Assembly (NCBI GenBank): GCA_001724245.1 | Contig: MEDX01000027.1 | Coordinates: 1-41,435, forward strand | DNA length: 41,435 nt | Direction: 5' to 3' | Source of the DNA: Fonticula-like sp. SCN 57-25 | Taxonomy: Eukaryota | Part shown: piece after piece, positions 14,043 to 30,554 of the stretch | Layout of the letters: every line of letters starts with the position of its first letter | How positions within the stretch are numbered: position 1 is the first letter of the stretch | Translations under genes and position numbers: made by a program | The notes under the pieces: model-generated | What the model was told of the DNA's origin: nothing | The model's database searches: none | Seen by the model: only the letters and a program-made list of their open reading frames with translations

Positions 14043-17000
14043 ATGCAGGCCGATGATGGGGCGGACGACGGGGACCTGACGGTGCGTAAAAAGCATTTGC
14101 TTGATATATTGTGTGTCTTATGGGGACGTTTGCTTGAGTAGACGTTTCGCTCTTTCTTTGATGAAGGCGATGAAGTGCTTGAGCGGGCATCCCTCGTCGC
14201 CAGCAACAACGACATGGGCGATGTCGAGTGGATTGCCCGCATCCTTGACGGGTACCAGGAGCAGCCCCAATTATTAGACACGCACCTGCCTCGCCTGATG
14301 GCCATTGTTGTGGACGCTATTCGACTAAAGCGCGAAGCTCCTGCTGCTGTTGAATCTCTTCGTGCCGTGTTCCGCCTCGCCTATGTCATCGTCAAGGTCC
14401 GAGGCGCCAAGGCAGTAGGTACGAGGTCGCCATTGCCAAACCACTTTACGCTCAAAGCGTTTTAAAAGGTAAATATTGGGGACATGAAGTATCCGACGTT
14501 CTTCCTACGCTGTCCTTTCTCATGTCCATAGACCCGCTTGTGCCGTCGCTGTGGGAAGCGCGCTACGTTTTGCTTCTATGGCTCTCGACACTGTTGCTGA
14601 TCCCGTTCAGTCTGAGTACAATCGATGGGAGCGGCGCTCAGCAGAACCAGCAAGCAAACTCCTTAAAAGAGGTTTTTCTTCCAACTGACCCCTCCTTTGC
14701 CTCGGCGGCGCACGACGTGTCTATTGTGACGCGCGTGCTCGCTGTCGCCAACTTTTTCCTGCCATACCAAGGAAGAGAACGGGAAGGCGCCGCCATGTGC
14801 ATTGCGCGGTTGCTCTCGCGCCGCGATGTGCTTGGCGTGGACAGCGGCGCCTTTGTCGAGGATTTTGTGGGGCAAGTAAATGACGCGCTGGGCGGCCAGA
14901 GCGCCGCAGCAGCCGGTACCCCAGCCTCCACCAACGGCAACGTCGTTGGCCTCCTGATGGCCCTCTGCGCCCTGCTCAAGGTCATGCGAAGGTCCGACGT
15001 CAGCCCGGCCCTCCAAGAGCAGCTTTATATGTGCCACGTTGCTGCGCGACGGGCTGCGAGCTCGTCGAGCAGCACCATGCTGACCAAAATGGCAGTCAAG
15101 CTGACGCAGCGCCTAGGCGTGGCCCTGCTTGTGCCCAAGGTTGCCAAGTGGAGGTACAAGCGCGGTGGACGCTTTGTAAACGGCGCCGATTCGGCCTCAT
15201 CCGGCGCCGCGGAAGAGCGGGGTGACGAGGCAGTAGAGGTTGCCGACGTGGATCACTACGAGCAGATTGAAGAGTTTATTGACACTCTGCTCGACGCGCT
15301 GAATCACCGTGTACGCATATCGTATGTTTTGTTGTTTGTACTGCTTACGAATATTGCGTACGTTGCAGGACACTGTTGTGCGGTGGTCCGCCGCCAAGGG
15401 CCTCGGCCGCATCTGCGAGCGCCTCCCCTTTGCCCTATCGGATGACGTCATCGGTGCTGTGCTTCGCCTCTTCCAGTCGTCGCGCTCCGACCCCGCTTCT
15501 TGGCACGGCCTTTGCCTGTCGCTGGCCGAGTTGAGCCGGCGCGGCATTCTTCTTCCCCGCCGGCTTGCCCCCTTCATCCCGCTCGTGCGACGCGCGCTCT
15601 ACTTTGAGTCGCGCGTGGGTGTGGGTGGTGCGTCGCTCGCCATCGTCGTCCGCGACGCGGCGTGCTACGTGTGCTGGGCGCTTGCCCGCGCGTATCACCC
15701 CGACGTGCTGGCGACTCACGTTACGACGTTGGCCGTCTCGCTCTCCACCGTGTCCGTATTTGACCGAGAGGTGAACGTGCGGCGAGCAGCGAGCGCCGCC
15801 TATCAGGAGCTCGTTGGGCGCATGCGGGGCGCAGTGCCTCACGGCATTGACGTCATCCGTGTGGCAGACTACTTTGCCGTTGGTGGGCGGGCGCGCTCGT
15901 TCGTGCAGGTGGCGCCCGCTGTTGCCAGCATCGGAGGCGAGCGCTACCGTGAGAGCATGGTCGCGCACCTCGTGGAACAAAAGGCGATCCATTGGGACCG
16001 GCAGATTCGAATTCTTGCGGCAAAGGCAATGCAGCAGCTCGTAGCAGACGACGTCGAGCTCGGGATATCCGTGATCGACTCTCTCGTACGACAGCCCTTT
16101 TCCACATTGTACCATTTTCATGTTGTTCACATTGCCCGCTTTCGTTTCGTAGTATGGCTCGTGCTTTTCAACGGATCCTGCCCATGTTCATGGCTCCCTG
16201 ATGGCGCTCGGTGCCGTGATAGCGGCCGTCTCTGCGGGCGGCCGCCCAGTGCCATCGCTTCATCAAGGGCGCGCCCTGGCCCGCCTGCCGATTGAGGTGA
16301 TCTCGACGTTGGGCAAGGCGGTTGCATCGTCGGATGTCGTAGGCGAAGCGCTGGCGGCGTTCATTGGAAATTTGGCCGACGCGCGCGTCCGCCTCGACAG
16401 CCCCGACAGCGAGGCGCTGGAGGACCAGCTCATAACACTCCTAAAGAAGGAGACGGACTTTACGAGAGAAGCCGCCCGCGATGCCGTCGGACGATGGCTG
16501 CTGGCGAAGGCGAGCGAGGCCGCCGATGATGAGCAGGCGCGCCAGCGGCTTCTCGGCAGCATTGCCGGCCGCTACATTGAACTGGTGGACAGCAACGTGA
16601 AGGGGAGAGGTGCGCTGGCAGAGCTCCCGCTCGTCCTCGCGGTCATGCCGGCCGCAGTATTGGCGCAGGAAGGAGAACGCGTCGTCAGCTGCCTGGTTGA
16701 CTGTCTTCAAGTACAGGTGCGCCGCTACGCTTGACGTTTGTTCCGCTTTCTAACTGCTTCTTTAAAGCATCTTGCTGAGCGCGTCCGTGCCGCCCTCACT
16801 GCCCTTATCCGCCTCTTTGTTTTGCTTCCCGGTGCCCTTTTTGCGCCCGCCCTTCCTTTAGTCCTGCAGACGTTTGGCAACTATACAACCGACGAGCGCG
16901 GCGATGTCGGCTCGCTGTGCCGCGAAGAGGCGATGGACTTTATTACGCGCGCCCCGCGAAGCGTTCTCGACGCCCTCATGCAGGCGGCAGTACAAGGCGG

Positions 17001-17985
17001 ACAAGAGCCTGGCGATTCGCCGACGGATGGTGTGAGCGTTGAGGGACTCGTCCTTCAGCAGATGCTTGAGAGGATAGATCGCACGCGCGTGGCCGCCTGC
17101 GTTGCCATGCGTCGAATCCTTTTCGATCAAGTGGACGACGACGCGCAGCCCGGGATTACGTGGCCTGCCGGCGCGGCGCCGGGCGGGTTGGATAGCGAGC
17201 TGCTGCGCTCAGTGTTCTCTGCCGAATCGCTCGCGCCATCGTTTCTTGATTTGGGCGATTTGTTTACGCGTGCCACTGCTCTGCTTGCCCGGGAAGGCGC
17301 TGGGTTCTCGACGTCCCTGCTGCTTGGCCTCTCAGCGAGCGCCGGCGGTGGCGCGGCGGAAGCGATCATGACCGCCGCCCGCACCGCGCTTCTCATGCGG
17401 CTCTTGACGCTTGACGCGAGCCAGAGGTGGTCGATTGCGTCGCGCTGGGCGGCCCTTTTGAGCAAGTACGCGCACCACGAGCGCCTCGCGTCGGCCCTCG
17501 TAGGCACGCTCCGGTTGCTTGTCGAGTCGGCATCGCTCGGCGGGGGCGGCGACGGTGGCGAGGTCGCAATGCTCGCAGTCGTGCGAGCGGTCAGAAAGGC
17601 GATTGCGACGTCGGGCGACATGAAAAAGATTGCTGAGGGTGTATACGTGCTTGCCTGGGCCATTGAGTGGAGTGAGGATGCGGGCGGTGAGAACATCGAC
17701 AGCAGCGCGGGCACTGTCACTGCGGCGAGTGTGAAGCGCAGTGCGTTTGGGCAGCTTGCCGTCACGCTCTGCAGCAAATTTCCGCGGGCGCGGACAATAA
17801 CGGCGTCGGCGCTTTATACGGCCGCACTGGGGAGGCAAGTGCTCCGGAAGGGAAAGACGATAGACTTGCTGATTGACACGGACTGGACGGGCGCTTTGAA
17901 GGATGTCAAGCCGAGGCGAGATCTGCTGTGCGACATGTACGGAGAACCGCGGCCGACCCCGATTAAACCCGCCGCACAGGCTTAA
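14043..17985 (+). CDS. TBCD: Tubulin-specific chaperone D, multi-exon
   Basis: YQEQPQLLD, WEARYVLLLWLS, DTVVRWSAAKGLGRI, VRDAACYVCWALAR, FDREVNVRRAASAAYQELVGR and YTTDERGDVGS. Confidence 0.96.
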
Positions 17986-25344: not shown

Positions 25345-28188
25345 CTACTCTTCAGCAATCGTGCTGGTCTGGACGCCCGACGCCGCCGCGACAGGCTCCT
25401 CTTCCGAGTGCAGCGGCGCGTTGCTCTGAATGCTTGCGCGCCTGTGCACCTGCAGCTTGAGGCTTTCGACGTCGTCCTTGAGCTCGCTGAACCGCTCGTC
25501 CTCCTCGACCGCCTCCTCGTACGACTCGAGCAGCTCAGAGAGCACCGCCTGCTCGCGCTGCGCATGCATAAACGTCAGCACTGGGCCCCACGAGTGTGGG
25601 ACAGCACGCACCTGAATTTCCTGGGACATGGTGTCGCCAAAGAATTTGTTGAGCTTGTTGATCTTCTTGAGCCGTACCGTCTTGACCTTGTCGCTCTCCG
25701 CTTCGGTCGCCGGCGGCGGGTACGTGGCGTCGACGTCGGCCATAAAATCGATGAGCTGCTCGAGGTCGGACTCGATGTCGTGCTCGAGGAGGAAGGTGAG
25801 CATCTTGAGCACCTTCTTGTTCCTCACGGGCCACGGGTCGTCCTGGTTGATGATGAGCTCGCGCGGAGGCATCTGGCCAAACACGCGCTCGAGCTTGTTC
25901 ATCCTGCGCTGCTGCTGCCTCCTGTCGTCGCCGGCGAGCGCGACGGTGGCCGCCACCGCATCCTGCGGGTCGTCCACGATGCCTTGCGCCATCAGCTCCT
26001 GCGCGGCCAGGCGCTCGCCCAAAAAGTTTTGCAGCTTGGACAGCCTGCGCTGGCGGTACTCCTTGGTCAGACGCTCCTGCTCAAGGGCGTCCATGGACGA
26101 CGACCGCGAGCGGGCCGCCACCAGGCGCTGCAGGTCCTCAACGGATGGGTGACGCAGCGAAGGCGACATGGGCGCCGCGATGGAGGCGTCCGCGTCGCTC
26201 TCAGTCGACCGGCCAAACTTGCCGAGGTCCACCGAGTTCAGCCAGCCCTTGATGCGCTGCGTGCCGTTGGACAGCGCGCTCGAGCTAGGAAAAGAAAACA
26301 AAGGCGCAAATGAGCCACGCGCCGTTGGGCAATGCTAGAGGAAAGCGTGCGTACCCAGTCGCCTTGCCCTGGACGGGGACGCGCTCCTCGCCGATCGGCT
26401 GGCCGAGAATGTCCTGCAGCTTGCGCGTGCGCCTCGTCATCGTCTTCTTCTCGTCCGACGTGAGCTCGTTGGTCGTCGGCGGCAGCTCCTCGAGGTCCTC
26501 CGACGAGTCGACCGGGACCGCAACGCCCGTCACGAGGCGCTGGCCGGCGAGCTGCGGCGTAGGAAGACGGTCGCCAAAGAACTCGCCAAGCTTGTCCGCC
26601 TTGCGCTTCTTGGCCGACGGGGCGCCATGCTCGGCCGCCGCGTCGACGTCGCCCTCGTCGCCCTCCGACATATCCACGTCGCCCGCGGCGGGCGCGTCTT
26701 CGAGATCAACGTCCGTGGGGAGGTGCTCGCGGCTGCGCTGCAGCTCCATGTGCGCCTCGCTCGGGCGGTCCCCAAAGAACTTGATCAACTTCTTCTCTTT
26801 TTGGAAGCGCAGGCGACGCTGCTGAGAAGCGAGCTGCTCCTTGGCCTCGCTGTAGTCGCCGCTCGCAATGCTGCAAAAGGAGAAAAGGAACAAATATAAG
26901 AGTGAGTGCCGGCCTACGTGGTGCCCGAATCTGCGCACTCTTGGTCGACGGCGTCGCGCAGCCAGTAGCGCTTGACGGCCTTTGAAAGAGTGGCGTGGCG
27001 GTCCGGCTTTTCTTCGGCAGCCGCGGGCTGCTCCGGCGTAATGCGCGAGGCGAAAAAGGCGCCAATGTTTTCCGTTTGCGTGCAATCGGCAGCACCCACA
27101 TCTGGCGGCACACGTCAGCAGGCAGGTGGCGTACTTAAAAAGGGACGCCGTACCGGCATTCTTGGCCGCCTCGTACTCGCGGAATTTGCTGCTCTGGAGG
27201 AACCGCTTGAACGAGTGCGCCTTGAGCATCGTCTGGATGTGCGCCTGCGCGTCGTCATACATGTCGACAGCCGCGGACTCTACGGGATACGTAATCGCGT
27301 TGCTGTGGAAGGGCAGTGGTCAGACAGAGGCGTGATAAAGCAAGTTTTTTGCGCACCGGACGTCCTGCTCGAGATTGAGGCCCAGAGGGGCGTCCTCCGC
27401 GAGGAAATGAAGGTAGATGCGCTGCGCAAACTCAAGACGCCTGGCATCCTTGCTCTGCGCCAGAGCGCGGAAAGTCTCGACATCAAGCCAGAAGAGGAGA
27501 TCTTCAAGCGCATACTCGCTGGTGCAAAAGTCCTGCTCGCACAAAACACGCGAATCAGTACAAAGGCGCGGGAGCAGATCGCGGCGCACCCTAAAGTAAG
27601 TTAGGCACATGCGGTTGTGCATGGCGTTGATAAAGTCGGCATCCGAGATGTGAGTCACTTCCTCCACCTCTGCAAGCGAAGAGAGGGTTGACGAAGACTT
27701 GATCGCGAGCTCGTCAAGCTGCATCGCGACGGCATTGCTGGCATCTGCACCCACAGAGTAAGCATCGAAACCATGCGATCGTGGTCCGTTGCCGCACCGT
27801 CGCTGCGATCCTCTTCCGAGACGGCGATCACAGTAGCTCCCGTCACGATAAGGCTGCCGATCTCTTCAGAAAAGCTTAGCGGCACGCTCTCCTCGTCCAT
27901 AAAGAGGCAGCAGTGGATGGCCGGCTTGTCACTGTTTAAAACATCATGCCCATGTTAGGTCGGCATTTGCGGCGCAGCCATGCGGGCGTACGGGTTCTGC
28001 TCCTTATACACGGCCTCTACGTGGCGTGCAAGCTGCTCAACCGTGCGCGAGGCGTTCACCTCCGCGGTCAGAACGACCTGCTCCACTAGCACGTTGACGG
28101 TGAGCACGGGGCTGCGTGCGTCCACCTCAAGGCGCTGCGGCTTCCGGAAATACCGGGCCGAGTTGCGCCGGCCAAGCGAAGTCGCCAT
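25345..28188 (-). CDS. RGS-domain protein with a possible N-terminal ubiquitin-like fold and six C-terminal KLxx(F/I/V)(F/L)G repeats, multi-exon
   Basis: RGS core FC.SEYALEDLLFWLDVETFR..AQRIYLHFLAEDAPLGLNL..MYDDAQAHIQTML..SFKRFLQSSKF. Repeats KLIKFFGDRP, KLGEFFGDRLP, KLQDILGQP, KLQNFLGERL, KLERVFGQMPP and KLNKFFGD. Confidence 0.8.
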
Positions 28189-28399
28189 TTCTTTAAACAA
28201 GGGAAAGCACAAATGGATAGGATATTTTATGCGGCGATGCGACACAAAAAGCAAGGGAGAAAAACGGGGGCCGGCCGAAACACGGGAGCGGGAGAGGTTA
28301 AGTGGGTGCGGCCGCGGCGTTCGCGTCGACCCACCCGATCGCGGGATACAACCAATGAAAAGTAATGAGGCGTAAATTGGACCAATCATAGACGGCCAA

Positions 28400-29142
28400 T
28401 CAATAGACATCATCAATCAATGAACGCATGCCTTTCTGGAGCAGGAGTGTGTCACGGCGTTCATCGCGGACGGCCAGCAGCTTGCCCCGTGCGCCGCGCA
28501 GCTCCTTGGTGATGCTGGCTTGAAGGCCGACGATGTCCGACTTGCGGCGCTCGTTCAGGTCTTCGAGATCCTTCCACATGGAGGCCTCGATCGCGCGCGA
28601 CTGCTTGTTGATCTGCTCCATCTTGGCCACGATGGCGCCGCACGTCTGCTGGTAGGTCTGCTGAAGCGCGCGAAGCCTCTCGATTTCCTTGTCATACTCG
28701 CTCTGTCGCTCTGCGAATTGCTTCTGATAGGACTGCACGCGCTGCTCAAAGCCCTGCTGAAAGGCGCTCAAATGGTTGCCCAGCTGCTCTGCTCGGTCAA
28801 AACAGATACCACACTCGTTAGAACCGCGCTCTCAGAGCAGATAGAAGCATGCACCGCACCATTTGCGTTTGACATGATGTTGTCGGTCATTTCGTTGAGC
28901 TTGCGCTTCCTGCTGTCCATCCGGGTCGACAGACGCTCGCTAATGAGCCCCAGCAGCGACTGAATGTCGTCACGCCCGTCTCCGGACGGCGACTGCGGAC
29001 GCGGCGTCCGCTCCGCCTGTGGAAGCTCATTCTCAAAGTCAAACTCGTCATGCACCGCGCTTATCTTGGTCTTTGACGCGGGCGTTTTGGTGGCGAGAGC
29101 ATTCCCGCGCTTGTTAACCGAGGCGGGCTTGAGCGGCGCCAT
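28400..29142 (-). CDS. SYCP3/Cor1-like coiled-coil protein (~223 aa; intron 28789-28859)
   Basis: Spliced product: disordered N-terminus with EFDFENE, then DIQSLLGLISERLSTRMDSRKRKLNEMTDNIMSNANEQL, a Q-rich coiled coil, and the end GLQASITKELRGARGKLL..LLLQKGMRSLI. Size and motif order match SYCP3. Confidence 0.7.
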
Positions 29143-29851
29143 TCACGTAGCGGTCGGCCGTTGCGCGCCGACAAGAGGAAAGAAAAATGCGCGCCCCTTT
29201 TGCGTCCGTACGCGCGTTTGGGGAAAAGAAGCCCAAAATGAATATTGAGCCGAATTCAAATTGGGCAGCTCACGCAGTCGATGGGGGCCGCGATATGCAG
29301 AGTTCCATGCAGTGTTCATATACAGGGCAACACCTAGAGAGGACATTACACCTCAGTAAGCAGACATGATGCGTGCATGCATGTGCTCTTGCTCTTGCTT
29401 GCTTGCACTTTTTATTAAGAGTTTTTCGGCGATTGCTATTTGGGTCCCTGGGAATGCATTCCAAGCTGCAAACTGCAAACTTCCGATCTTATGTCAGATC
29501 CGCGTAACAACCCAGATTGGTCAATAGTAAAAGTCCAAGGAACCGCTAATAAGAATCGAGTAAAATTAAACGGTCCAATCTGGTCGTTTACACGAATTGC
29601 TCTTGTTTTCCCTTGATCCCCTTTCCATTCGATACATTTTTTTCCCTTTTTTCAAACTTACCTCGGCTCGTTGTGTTTGGTCAGGTGCGCACTGAAAGGC
29701 AAAGAGGGCTAGCCAGCGAAAGGCGGTGGGTAGGGTGACGCGCTGCCGCTGTATGCTTGTGGTAGTTGTAGCTTTCTTTTTTTGCTGCTTAATTTGGCTG
29801 TATTTTTTGGCTAATCTTGTTGGTCTTTGTAGGTTTTTTTGCAAAGCAGCC

Positions 29852-30554
29852 ATGGACAAGATCAAGGAGAAGATGAACCAGCTCCGCCTGGAGGCGGATC
29901 GCAACCTCGACCGCGCTCAGGAGGCTGAGGAGAAGTCCAAGGTCATGGAGGAGAAGGTCCGCAGCTCGGAGAACGAGATGCAGAGCCTCCGCAACAAGAT
30001 CAAGCTCCTTGAGCAGGTGCGTTGACCAACCTATGATCGCTGTTTTTCTTTTCGAATTATTGTGAATCCGATACTGCTATGAGTTGTTATGCATTTGTGT
30101 ATATGCCTGTGCCTCGTTTCTCCTGTATCCTCTAGACTCGTATGCTTTGGCTGACTCGTATATCTTTTTGTAGGAGCTTGACCGTGCCGAGGACCGCATT
30201 GCCGACTCCAAGGCCCAGGCCGCCCGCAGCGACAGCGCTGGTACGTTTCGCATTTTTTCCCATGTGGGCCGTGTCCGGCGTGCCTAATACCATCGTTTAG
30301 GCCGCGACTCTGAGGCTCTTCTGCGCAAGATCGCCCTCCTCGAGAAGGACCTCGACATTGCCGAGGAGGCCCTCAAGGAGAAGACCGATCTCTACCGCGC
30401 TGCTGAGCTCAAGGCCGAGACCTTCGAGCGCAAGTCGCGCATCCTCGAGCAGGAGCGTGACGACCTCGAGCAGGAGCTTGAGGAGAAGCTTGCCGAGCTC
30501 AAGAAGGCCAAGGCTGACCTCGAGGAGACTCTTTCGAACCTCGACAGCATCTAA
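29852..30554 (+). CDS. TPM: Tropomyosin, short 161-aa fungal type (exons 29852-30016, 30174-30240, 30301-30554)
   Basis: MDKIKEKMNQLRLEAD N-terminus and a continuous heptad coiled coil. Exons sum to 486 nt, i.e. 161 aa plus stop. A probable 5'UTR intron lies at 29685-29832. Confidence 0.95.

Follow-up and report, generated by a model that had tools for sequence, protein, structure and literature searches.

A predicted long-helix protein of Fonticula-like sp. SCN 57-25 resembles the meiotic axis protein SYCP3 at motif level and is a candidate remote relative

The meiotic chromosome axis looks alike across eukaryotes, yet sequence comparison relates its proteins only with difficulty. Red1, ASY3/4, Rec10/27 and SYCP2/3 have been brought together into one pan-eukaryotic family (West 2019; Tromer 2021), and in the current picture, as set out in the sections of Tromer 2021 drawn on here, there was one ancient SYCP2-type gene, with SYCP3 proper being an animal invention. 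SYCP3-type members are described from plants (ASY4), S. pombe (Rec27) and kinetoplastids (KKT16), which pair with or derive from an SYCP2/Red1-type axis core protein according to the same sections and those of West 2019, while the BLAST searches in the cited part of Grishaeva 2014 did not bring up an SYCP3-like protein from fungi, plants or choanoflagellates. Here we describe a gene for a 223-residue protein at positions 28400-29142, minus strand, of contig MEDX01000027.1 from Fonticula-like sp. SCN 57-25, the whole analysed stretch of 41,435 nucleotides being called the window. A first-pass annotation had taken this gene for an animal-type SYCP3, on the premise that non-animals lack recognisable relatives of it; since SYCP2/3-family axis proteins are now known across eukaryotes (West 2019; Tromer 2021, as far as the cited sections go), that premise is partly outdated. 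Judging from its sequence, we consider it an even call that the window protein is a remote SYCP3-type protein of the SYCP2/3 axis-core family.

Our reference was human SYCP3, in those residues that are printed in Syrjanen 2014 (PMC4102245). In this protein of 236 amino acids (aa) the helical core spans residues 66-230; 69-EVQNML-74 (Nt6) is required for fibre formation, 88-KRKR-91 (BP2) is a DNA-binding patch, and the conserved last six residues (Ct6, 231-236) are needed for fibre assembly. The residue numbers of packing partners sum to 308 (L92-M216, L100-M208, W111-L197, F154-F154), and F154 lies at the dyad with the conserved glutamines Q157/Q158. The window protein is of similar size (223 aa) and its predicted helix (57-222) of similar extent and position. 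With metazoan SYCP3, as far as printed, it shares a disordered basic N-terminal tail followed by a long helical core reaching almost to the C-terminus, Nt6-like and BP2-like patches plus a leucine at identical spacing, aromatic residues in register, a hydrophobic core in the C-terminal half and, tentatively, a glutamine-rich aromatic centre at the predicted dyad. The features of the gene and protein are as follows.

28860-29142, minus strand: exon 1, with the ATG at 29142; 94 codons plus one base, residues 1-94
28789-28859, minus strand: predicted intron of 71 nt, with donor GTGCGG, CTAAC 29 nt from the 3' end and acceptor CAG
28400-28788, minus strand: exon 2, residues 95-223 and the TGA stop at 28400-28402
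28975-29142, minus strand: N-terminal tail, residues 1-56, disordered in the AlphaFold2 model; isoelectric point of residues 1-57, 9.4
28403-28971, minus strand: predicted helix, residues 57-222, with a hendecad (11-residue) rather than heptad rhythm
28951-28968, minus strand: DIQSLL, residues 59-64, where the predicted helix begins; putative counterpart of Nt6
28897-28911, minus strand: RKRK-L, residues 78-82; putative counterpart of BP2 and L92, resembling a nuclear localization signal
28715-28729, minus strand: YQKQF, residues 115-119; putative counterpart of the aromatic core Y125..F129, at an offset of 10
28646-28663, minus strand: QQTYQQ, residues 137-142, in the middle of the helix; place at which the dyad of an antiparallel bundle is predicted
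28415-28435, minus strand: KGMRSLI, residues 213-219; candidate counterpart of the C-terminal assembly patch

The coordinates 28400-29142, proposed from the letters of the DNA, proved exact, and the protein strings quoted in that proposal are all present in the window. Removal of one GT-AG intron leaves a coding sequence of 672 nt for 223 aa with a single terminal TGA. As had also been said, public callers of open reading frames (ORFs) split the gene in two, into P0003 (123 aa) and P0007 (124 aa). The GC content by codon position of the spliced coding sequence is 0.61/0.39/0.78 and alike in the exons (0.56/0.46/0.77 in exon 1); an in-frame TGA lies immediately 5' of the ATG, and no start codon is present near the 5' end of exon 2. 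Enumeration of all GT-AG pairs gave 170 that leave the frame open, among which 28859-28789 is alone in having a G at +5 and CTAAC 29 nt before CAG while keeping the conserved coding sequence. With any of three nearby pairs (donor 28859 or 28854; intron ends 28792, 28787 and 28784) at most two residues at the junction would differ, and the other open-frame pairs cost coding sequence or keep intron read-through. Similar signals are found in three other introns of the window (GTACAG..CTAAC, GTGCGT..CTGAC and GTACGT..CTAAT). The intron is present in DNA contigs of four other sequencing runs, near-identical and without joints, which, as DNA without coding variants, are uninformative on selection or splicing; none of the 17 runs listed for the locus is RNA. 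We regard the two-exon gene model as confirmed, with a splice predicted from the DNA. It is also supported by the fact that the register of the comparison with human SYCP3 described below runs unbroken over the splice junction.

Structure prediction, like the Pfam and PDB searches below, was run on exon 1 and exon 2 separately. AlphaFold2 modelled exon 2 as a single helix (exon residues 2-128) with a predicted local distance difference test score (pLDDT) of 95.5, and exon 1 as having no helix before residue 57 (pLDDT 55-73), followed by a helix from 57 to 93. The 223-aa protein is thus modelled as a disordered basic tail (1-56) and, from there to the C-terminus, one unbroken amphipathic helix of about 166 residues, against about 140-165 for the helical core of SYCP3. 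Within the tail, a tract at residues 5-26 contains six K/R and no acidic residue, and EFDFENE occupies residues 33-39 (29026-29046, minus strand). Hydrophobicity along the helix peaks at a period of 3.6-3.67, not 3.5, with a power at 3.6 or 3.67 that none of 2000 shuffles reached, and self-similarity is strongest at an offset of 11 (z 4.8; z 1.3 at an offset of 7). Such a periodicity suits straight helical bundles or helices that bind surfaces.

The resemblance to SYCP3 is clearest in the N-terminal half, where one ungapped offset of 10 (human number = window-protein number + 10) crosses the splice junction and places Nt6 on DIQSLL and BP2 on RKRK. DIQSLL scores a BLOSUM62 sum of 17 against Nt6, with 6/6 positions positive and two identical, and is the best 6-mer in the protein; RKRK begins 19 residues past the first Nt6-like residue, a spacing as in human. 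At the same offset L92, L100, I107 and W111 fall on L82, M90, L97 and L101, and Y125, F129, W136 and D139 on Y115, F119, Y126 and E129, while Y95, R118, S126 and F133 are unconserved (F133 falling on Q123). Summed by hand over the 22 printed N-half positions, the BLOSUM62 score is 41, to be set against a random-residue null with mean -20.6 and s.d. 9.6; under a deliberately lenient null, in which the hydrophobic/polar pattern is taken to match perfectly, the mean is 15.0 and the s.d. 9.0, giving z 2.9. When only the 13 residues outside the patches are counted, the score is +18 at offset 10 and -6, -8 and -5 at the hand-tried offsets 7, 14 and 17. The chance of finding an Nt6-like 6-mer, four basic residues and a hydrophobic residue at the exact spacing is 9e-6 per protein with the protein's own composition and 9e-7 with a generic composition, a slack of ±3 raising it sevenfold. 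Because the resemblance falls on Nt6, BP2, L92, Y125, F129 and W136 in one register, as these are printed in Syrjanen 2014, we argue that it is not generic coiled-coil noise, and the match of functional patches and core makes a remote SYCP3-type protein plausible. The SYCP3-likeness claimed at first pass therefore holds as to patches, core and a single ungapped N-half register, but stays below threshold by standard statistics. The human strings quoted for it agree with the printed residues at all 26 checkable positions.

In the C-terminal half, the hand sum over the 22 printed core residues is highest at offset 17, where it reaches +8 (-4, -14, -15, -17, -18 and -32 at offsets 14, 16, 21, 10, 13 and 18). 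At this offset the window protein is hydrophobic at each of the ten hydrophobic core positions that run from L178 to M216 (one is alanine), and it is identical at Q201 and K214. Offsets of 10 and 17, taken with the human sum of 308, imply a partner sum of 281 in the window protein and a predicted dyad at 140.5. The midpoint of helix 57-222 is 139.5, and Y140 sits there, flanked by QQ on both sides, which would parallel F154 with Q157/Q158 in the human protein.

If the window protein follows human SYCP3, four helices would bundle in antiparallel fashion to give a rod of about 20 nm, its dyad near Y140 in QQTYQQ. Each rod end would then carry two basic tails, whose RKRK patch and basic tract at 5-26 may bind DNA, and DIQSLL at the start of the helix, together with the C-terminal KGMRSLI, might link rods end to end into chromosome-axis fibres. 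What we infer in this proposal comprises the homology itself as well as the tetramer, DNA binding, fibre formation and meiotic use.

A search of exon 2 by phmmer against 1,835,955,588 representatives (E≤0.001) returned four proteins, namely the window's own ORF, P0004, P0005 and P0006. P0004 (57 aa) is 64% identical to exon 2 and P0005 (93 aa) 44%; each derives from one Logan contig of 2213 bp, which the two probably share. P0006 was rejected as a relative, being by Pfam a bacterial YadA-type adhesin and thus noise. From their sequences, P0004 and P0005 are exon fragments of one relative that bears extra introns, and this is the only relative found among about 15 billion proteins. The read-through tails of the ORF fragments indicate at least two introns absent from the window gene, one after QQTYQ and one before the C-terminal patch. 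Among the key residues, Y115, F119 and QQTYQQ are kept in P0004; in the columns of KGMRSLI the relative has KRSLQALF, neither stretch being at the very C-terminus. A word-indexed protein search at near lengths yielded 21 candidates, of which one was confirmed, the window's own ORF; at longer lengths none of 8000 candidates matched a three-sequence profile at E≤10, and with exon 1 the one candidate was again the window's own ORF. Metagenome contigs were scanned twice for relatives, with 65 and 226 pattern matches, none of which was confirmed.

A number of results weigh against kinship with SYCP3. No standard statistic puts the similarity above chance. Residues were mapped manually with the earlier alignment already known, which makes the mapping post hoc. 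On exon 2 (129 aa), the Pfam family Cor1/Xlr/Xmr (PF04803) scores 15.4 bits (cutoff 32.1) at E 0.023, ninth among 22 weak matches to helical families: OmpH, Apolipoprotein, REX1B, FAM184, HAUS6_N, MAD and DUF1664 stand above it and DUF3106 is tied. A significant match to Cor1 had been set beforehand as the test on which the SYCP3 identification would stand or fall, and by that test the identification fails: the E value falls short of significance, with eight helical families ranking level with Cor1 or higher. Since the score lies below the Pfam cutoff, we do not file the protein as a Cor1 member. The alignment itself sets exon-2 residues 8-99 on positions 37-128 of the 132-position profile and runs to the end of the model. 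Three coiled-coil controls, two tropomyosin exons and the adhesin, gave 23, 5 and 22 weak Pfam matches, and as Cor1 appears in none of them, it is not universal noise here, though one weak match among many. Exon 1 and its 40- and 50-residue tails have no Pfam match, and Cor1 is not listed for the relative's fragments P0004 and P0005. At E≤10, neither exon 2, exon 1 nor the three-sequence profile matched the SYCP3 chains of the PDB; by language-model features no Cor1 cluster was among the 30 nearest neighbours, whether or not a filter for named clusters was applied; and none of the four phmmer proteins is an SYCP3. A remote relative at such low similarity is invisible to database-wide searches.

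Other adverse points come from the residues. The positions matching BP1 (human 52-KRRKKR-57), residues 42-47, read QAERTP and hold no basic counterpart, the basic tract at 5-26 being further upstream. The different offsets of the two halves entail a net indel of seven residues, one heptad, and such a shift between halves is also produced by chance matches of coiled coils. The central core I150/F154/L161 falls on L136/Y140/I147 only with a further shift, to offset 14, so that a residue-by-residue match of Y140 to F154 needs an extra four-residue shift. Two printed salt bridges of the human protein, R118-E190 and R91-E218, are lost (F108-N173 and K81-V201 in their places). The likeness of KGMRSLI to the human C-terminal patch rests on the human string quoted in the first-pass annotation, the Ct6 letters being unprinted in the reference. 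Lastly, the cited sections of Tromer 2021 infer for SYCP3 an origin by coiled-coil duplication in the ancestor of metazoans.

Three structural comparisons leave the balance where it was. Foldseek found no match in the PDB for the exon-2 model, which is uninformative because a single helix carries no fold information. Prediction of a complex of four copies of exon 2 scored 0.19 against a mark of 0.32, which gives no verdict and is used neither way. In a structure-atlas search, the family sets of the 30 nearest models included an SYCP3 cluster, at row 10 (TM 0.72/0.59); we give it no weight since DivIVA and ATP synthase b are also among the neighbours.

The explanation that competes most directly, and which we hold to be a real possibility if somewhat short of an even one, is that the gene encodes an unrelated, lineage-restricted long-helix scaffold, probably nuclear in view of RKRK and self-associating through its hydrophobic stripe, whose likeness to SYCP3 arose by chance. 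This would account for automated tests that are all negative or below threshold, for a number of weak helical matches much like that of the coiled-coil controls, and for the single relative; the likeness would be one between two Q/E/K/L-rich amphipathic helices, chosen after the fact, with a z of 2.9 in the N-terminal half once the hydrophobic pattern is granted and a difference of seven between the half offsets, a typical coiled-coil ambiguity. It sits less easily with a similarity centred on residues singled out independently in the printed text of Syrjanen 2014, with an exact Nt6-BP2 spacing whose chance is about 1e-5 per protein, and with identical aromatic core residues 36-40 positions on in an unchanged register; size, helix position and, tentatively, the Q-rich aromatic centre also agree with SYCP3. 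A different use of the helix seems to us unlikely, namely that it forms no chromosomal rod but coats lipid or membrane as apolipoproteins, perilipins or LEA proteins do. The grounds for such a use are the period of 3.6-3.67 and the offset-11 self-similarity, features of the 11-residue periodic amphipathic helix of apolipoprotein A-I and the exchangeable apolipoproteins (PF01442), together with a Pfam Apolipoprotein match at E 0.0012 and 10 of the 22 PDB matches of the three-sequence profile being apolipoprotein A-I (best E 0.014). These matches are accounted for by the 11-residue periodicity. The Apolipoprotein score, moreover, is 19 bits against a cutoff of 90, the window protein is predicted to be one straight helix without proline-punctuated repeats, its basic patch and tail point to the nucleus, and apolipoproteins are animal and extracellular proteins. 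Metazoan SYCP3 profiles themselves drift to apolipoproteins in the cited sections of Tromer 2021, just as the profile of the window family does. We find it very improbable that the protein is a diverged representative of the DNA-repair family REX1-B (PF14966), which among the weak Pfam matches comes nearest to its cutoff (18.2 versus 24 bits, E 0.0038; residues 6-74 on positions 2-64 of the 94-position profile): the score is still below the cutoff, the family is unlisted for P0004, which spans that stretch, and the match covers just part of a single 127-residue helix.

In putting a remote SYCP3-type protein at even, we weighed a low prior and sub-threshold statistics together with a match that is specific, collinear and centred on function. 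The more demanding version, a true orthologue of animal SYCP3 that in a fungus-like lineage has kept the fibre, DNA-binding, aromatic-core and C-terminal features, appears to us possible but on the doubtful side. From metazoan SYCP3 as printed, the window protein differs in its sub-cutoff Pfam score, the missing BP1 counterpart, the seven-residue length difference and the lost salt bridges; four more residues follow its candidate C-terminal patch, and its host is probably a fungus and not an animal. With ASY4, Rec27 and KKT16 it has in common that it is short and consists of coiled coil only, but those proteins are tied to the family by reciprocal profiles or biochemistry, and the window protein is likened to it by motif comparison; they are also reported to be independent lineage-specific duplications, whereas the window protein resembles animal SYCP3 itself at motif level (Tromer 2021 and West 2019, in the sections cited). 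In the literature covered, to which the fungal-member supplements of Tromer 2021 do not belong, we found no report of a Cor1-type or SYCP3 protein outside animals.

A true orthologue would mean that SYCP3 is older than animals and was lost or scrambled in the well-studied fungi, contradicting an origin in the metazoan ancestor. The gene as described does not establish meiosis in this organism, and the first-pass reading of it as evidence of meiosis is to that extent unsupported. If the SYCP3 reading is true, the gene would point to meiosis in an uncultured microbe, and its small, tractable protein would open axis-fibre assembly to study in a simple microbial system. If the likeness is due to chance, it shows how misleading motif-level matches between long helices can be.

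The genes of the window are plainly eukaryotic and include PRP4, UBX, TLC-domain, synoviolin, tubulin cofactor D, DUF92/TMEM19, Iml2/TTC39, RGS, RING-finger, Y_phosphatase3 and GHMP kinase genes. They are tightly packed, with introns of 54-160 nt carrying CTRAY branch sites and a GC content of 52-63%. On the strength of the close packing, the short CTRAY introns, the GC content and a short, fungal-type tropomyosin, we think it probable that the host belongs to the fungi or to fungus-like opisthokonts and not to the animals; the non-animal genome of the first-pass annotation is to that extent likely, if unproven. The tropomyosin gene (29852-30554, plus strand) has three exons for about 160 aa, and Pfam Tropomyosin matches exon 1 at E 4.5e-12 and exon 3 at E 5.2e-10. 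Its introns read GTGCGT..CTGAC..TAG and GTACGT..CTAAT..TAG. It is divergent from the long-helix gene, the two start codons being about 700 bp apart. The tubulin cofactor D gene (14354-17985, plus strand) has an in-frame intron at 16714-16767 (GTACAG..CTAAC) that contains a TGA; two adjacent stop-to-stop ORFs in this gene reflect that intron, and a change of genetic code was rejected.

Upstream of the long-helix gene, GACGCAAAA lies at 29198-29206 (minus strand), 56-64 nt before the ATG, and fits what we take to be the consensus of the yeast Ndt80 middle sporulation element. We discarded it as evidence: seven such sites occur in the window and 8.4 are expected. At the other end of the gene, three CCAAT boxes (28352, 28382 and 28396) and an ATTGG (28376) lie within 50 bp (28352-28400). 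This cluster overlaps the stop codon of the long-helix gene. The next minus-strand gene, for an RGS-domain protein, starts about 165-210 bp beyond it (ATG at 28189), and the cluster is possibly the promoter of that gene.

The DNA of the locus is of metagenomic origin. Across 27900-30100, DNA at least 99% identical is present at low depth in wastewater, aquatic and two 'fungus metagenome' runs, and the variants there amount to three single-base differences and one two-base insertion, all of them non-coding.

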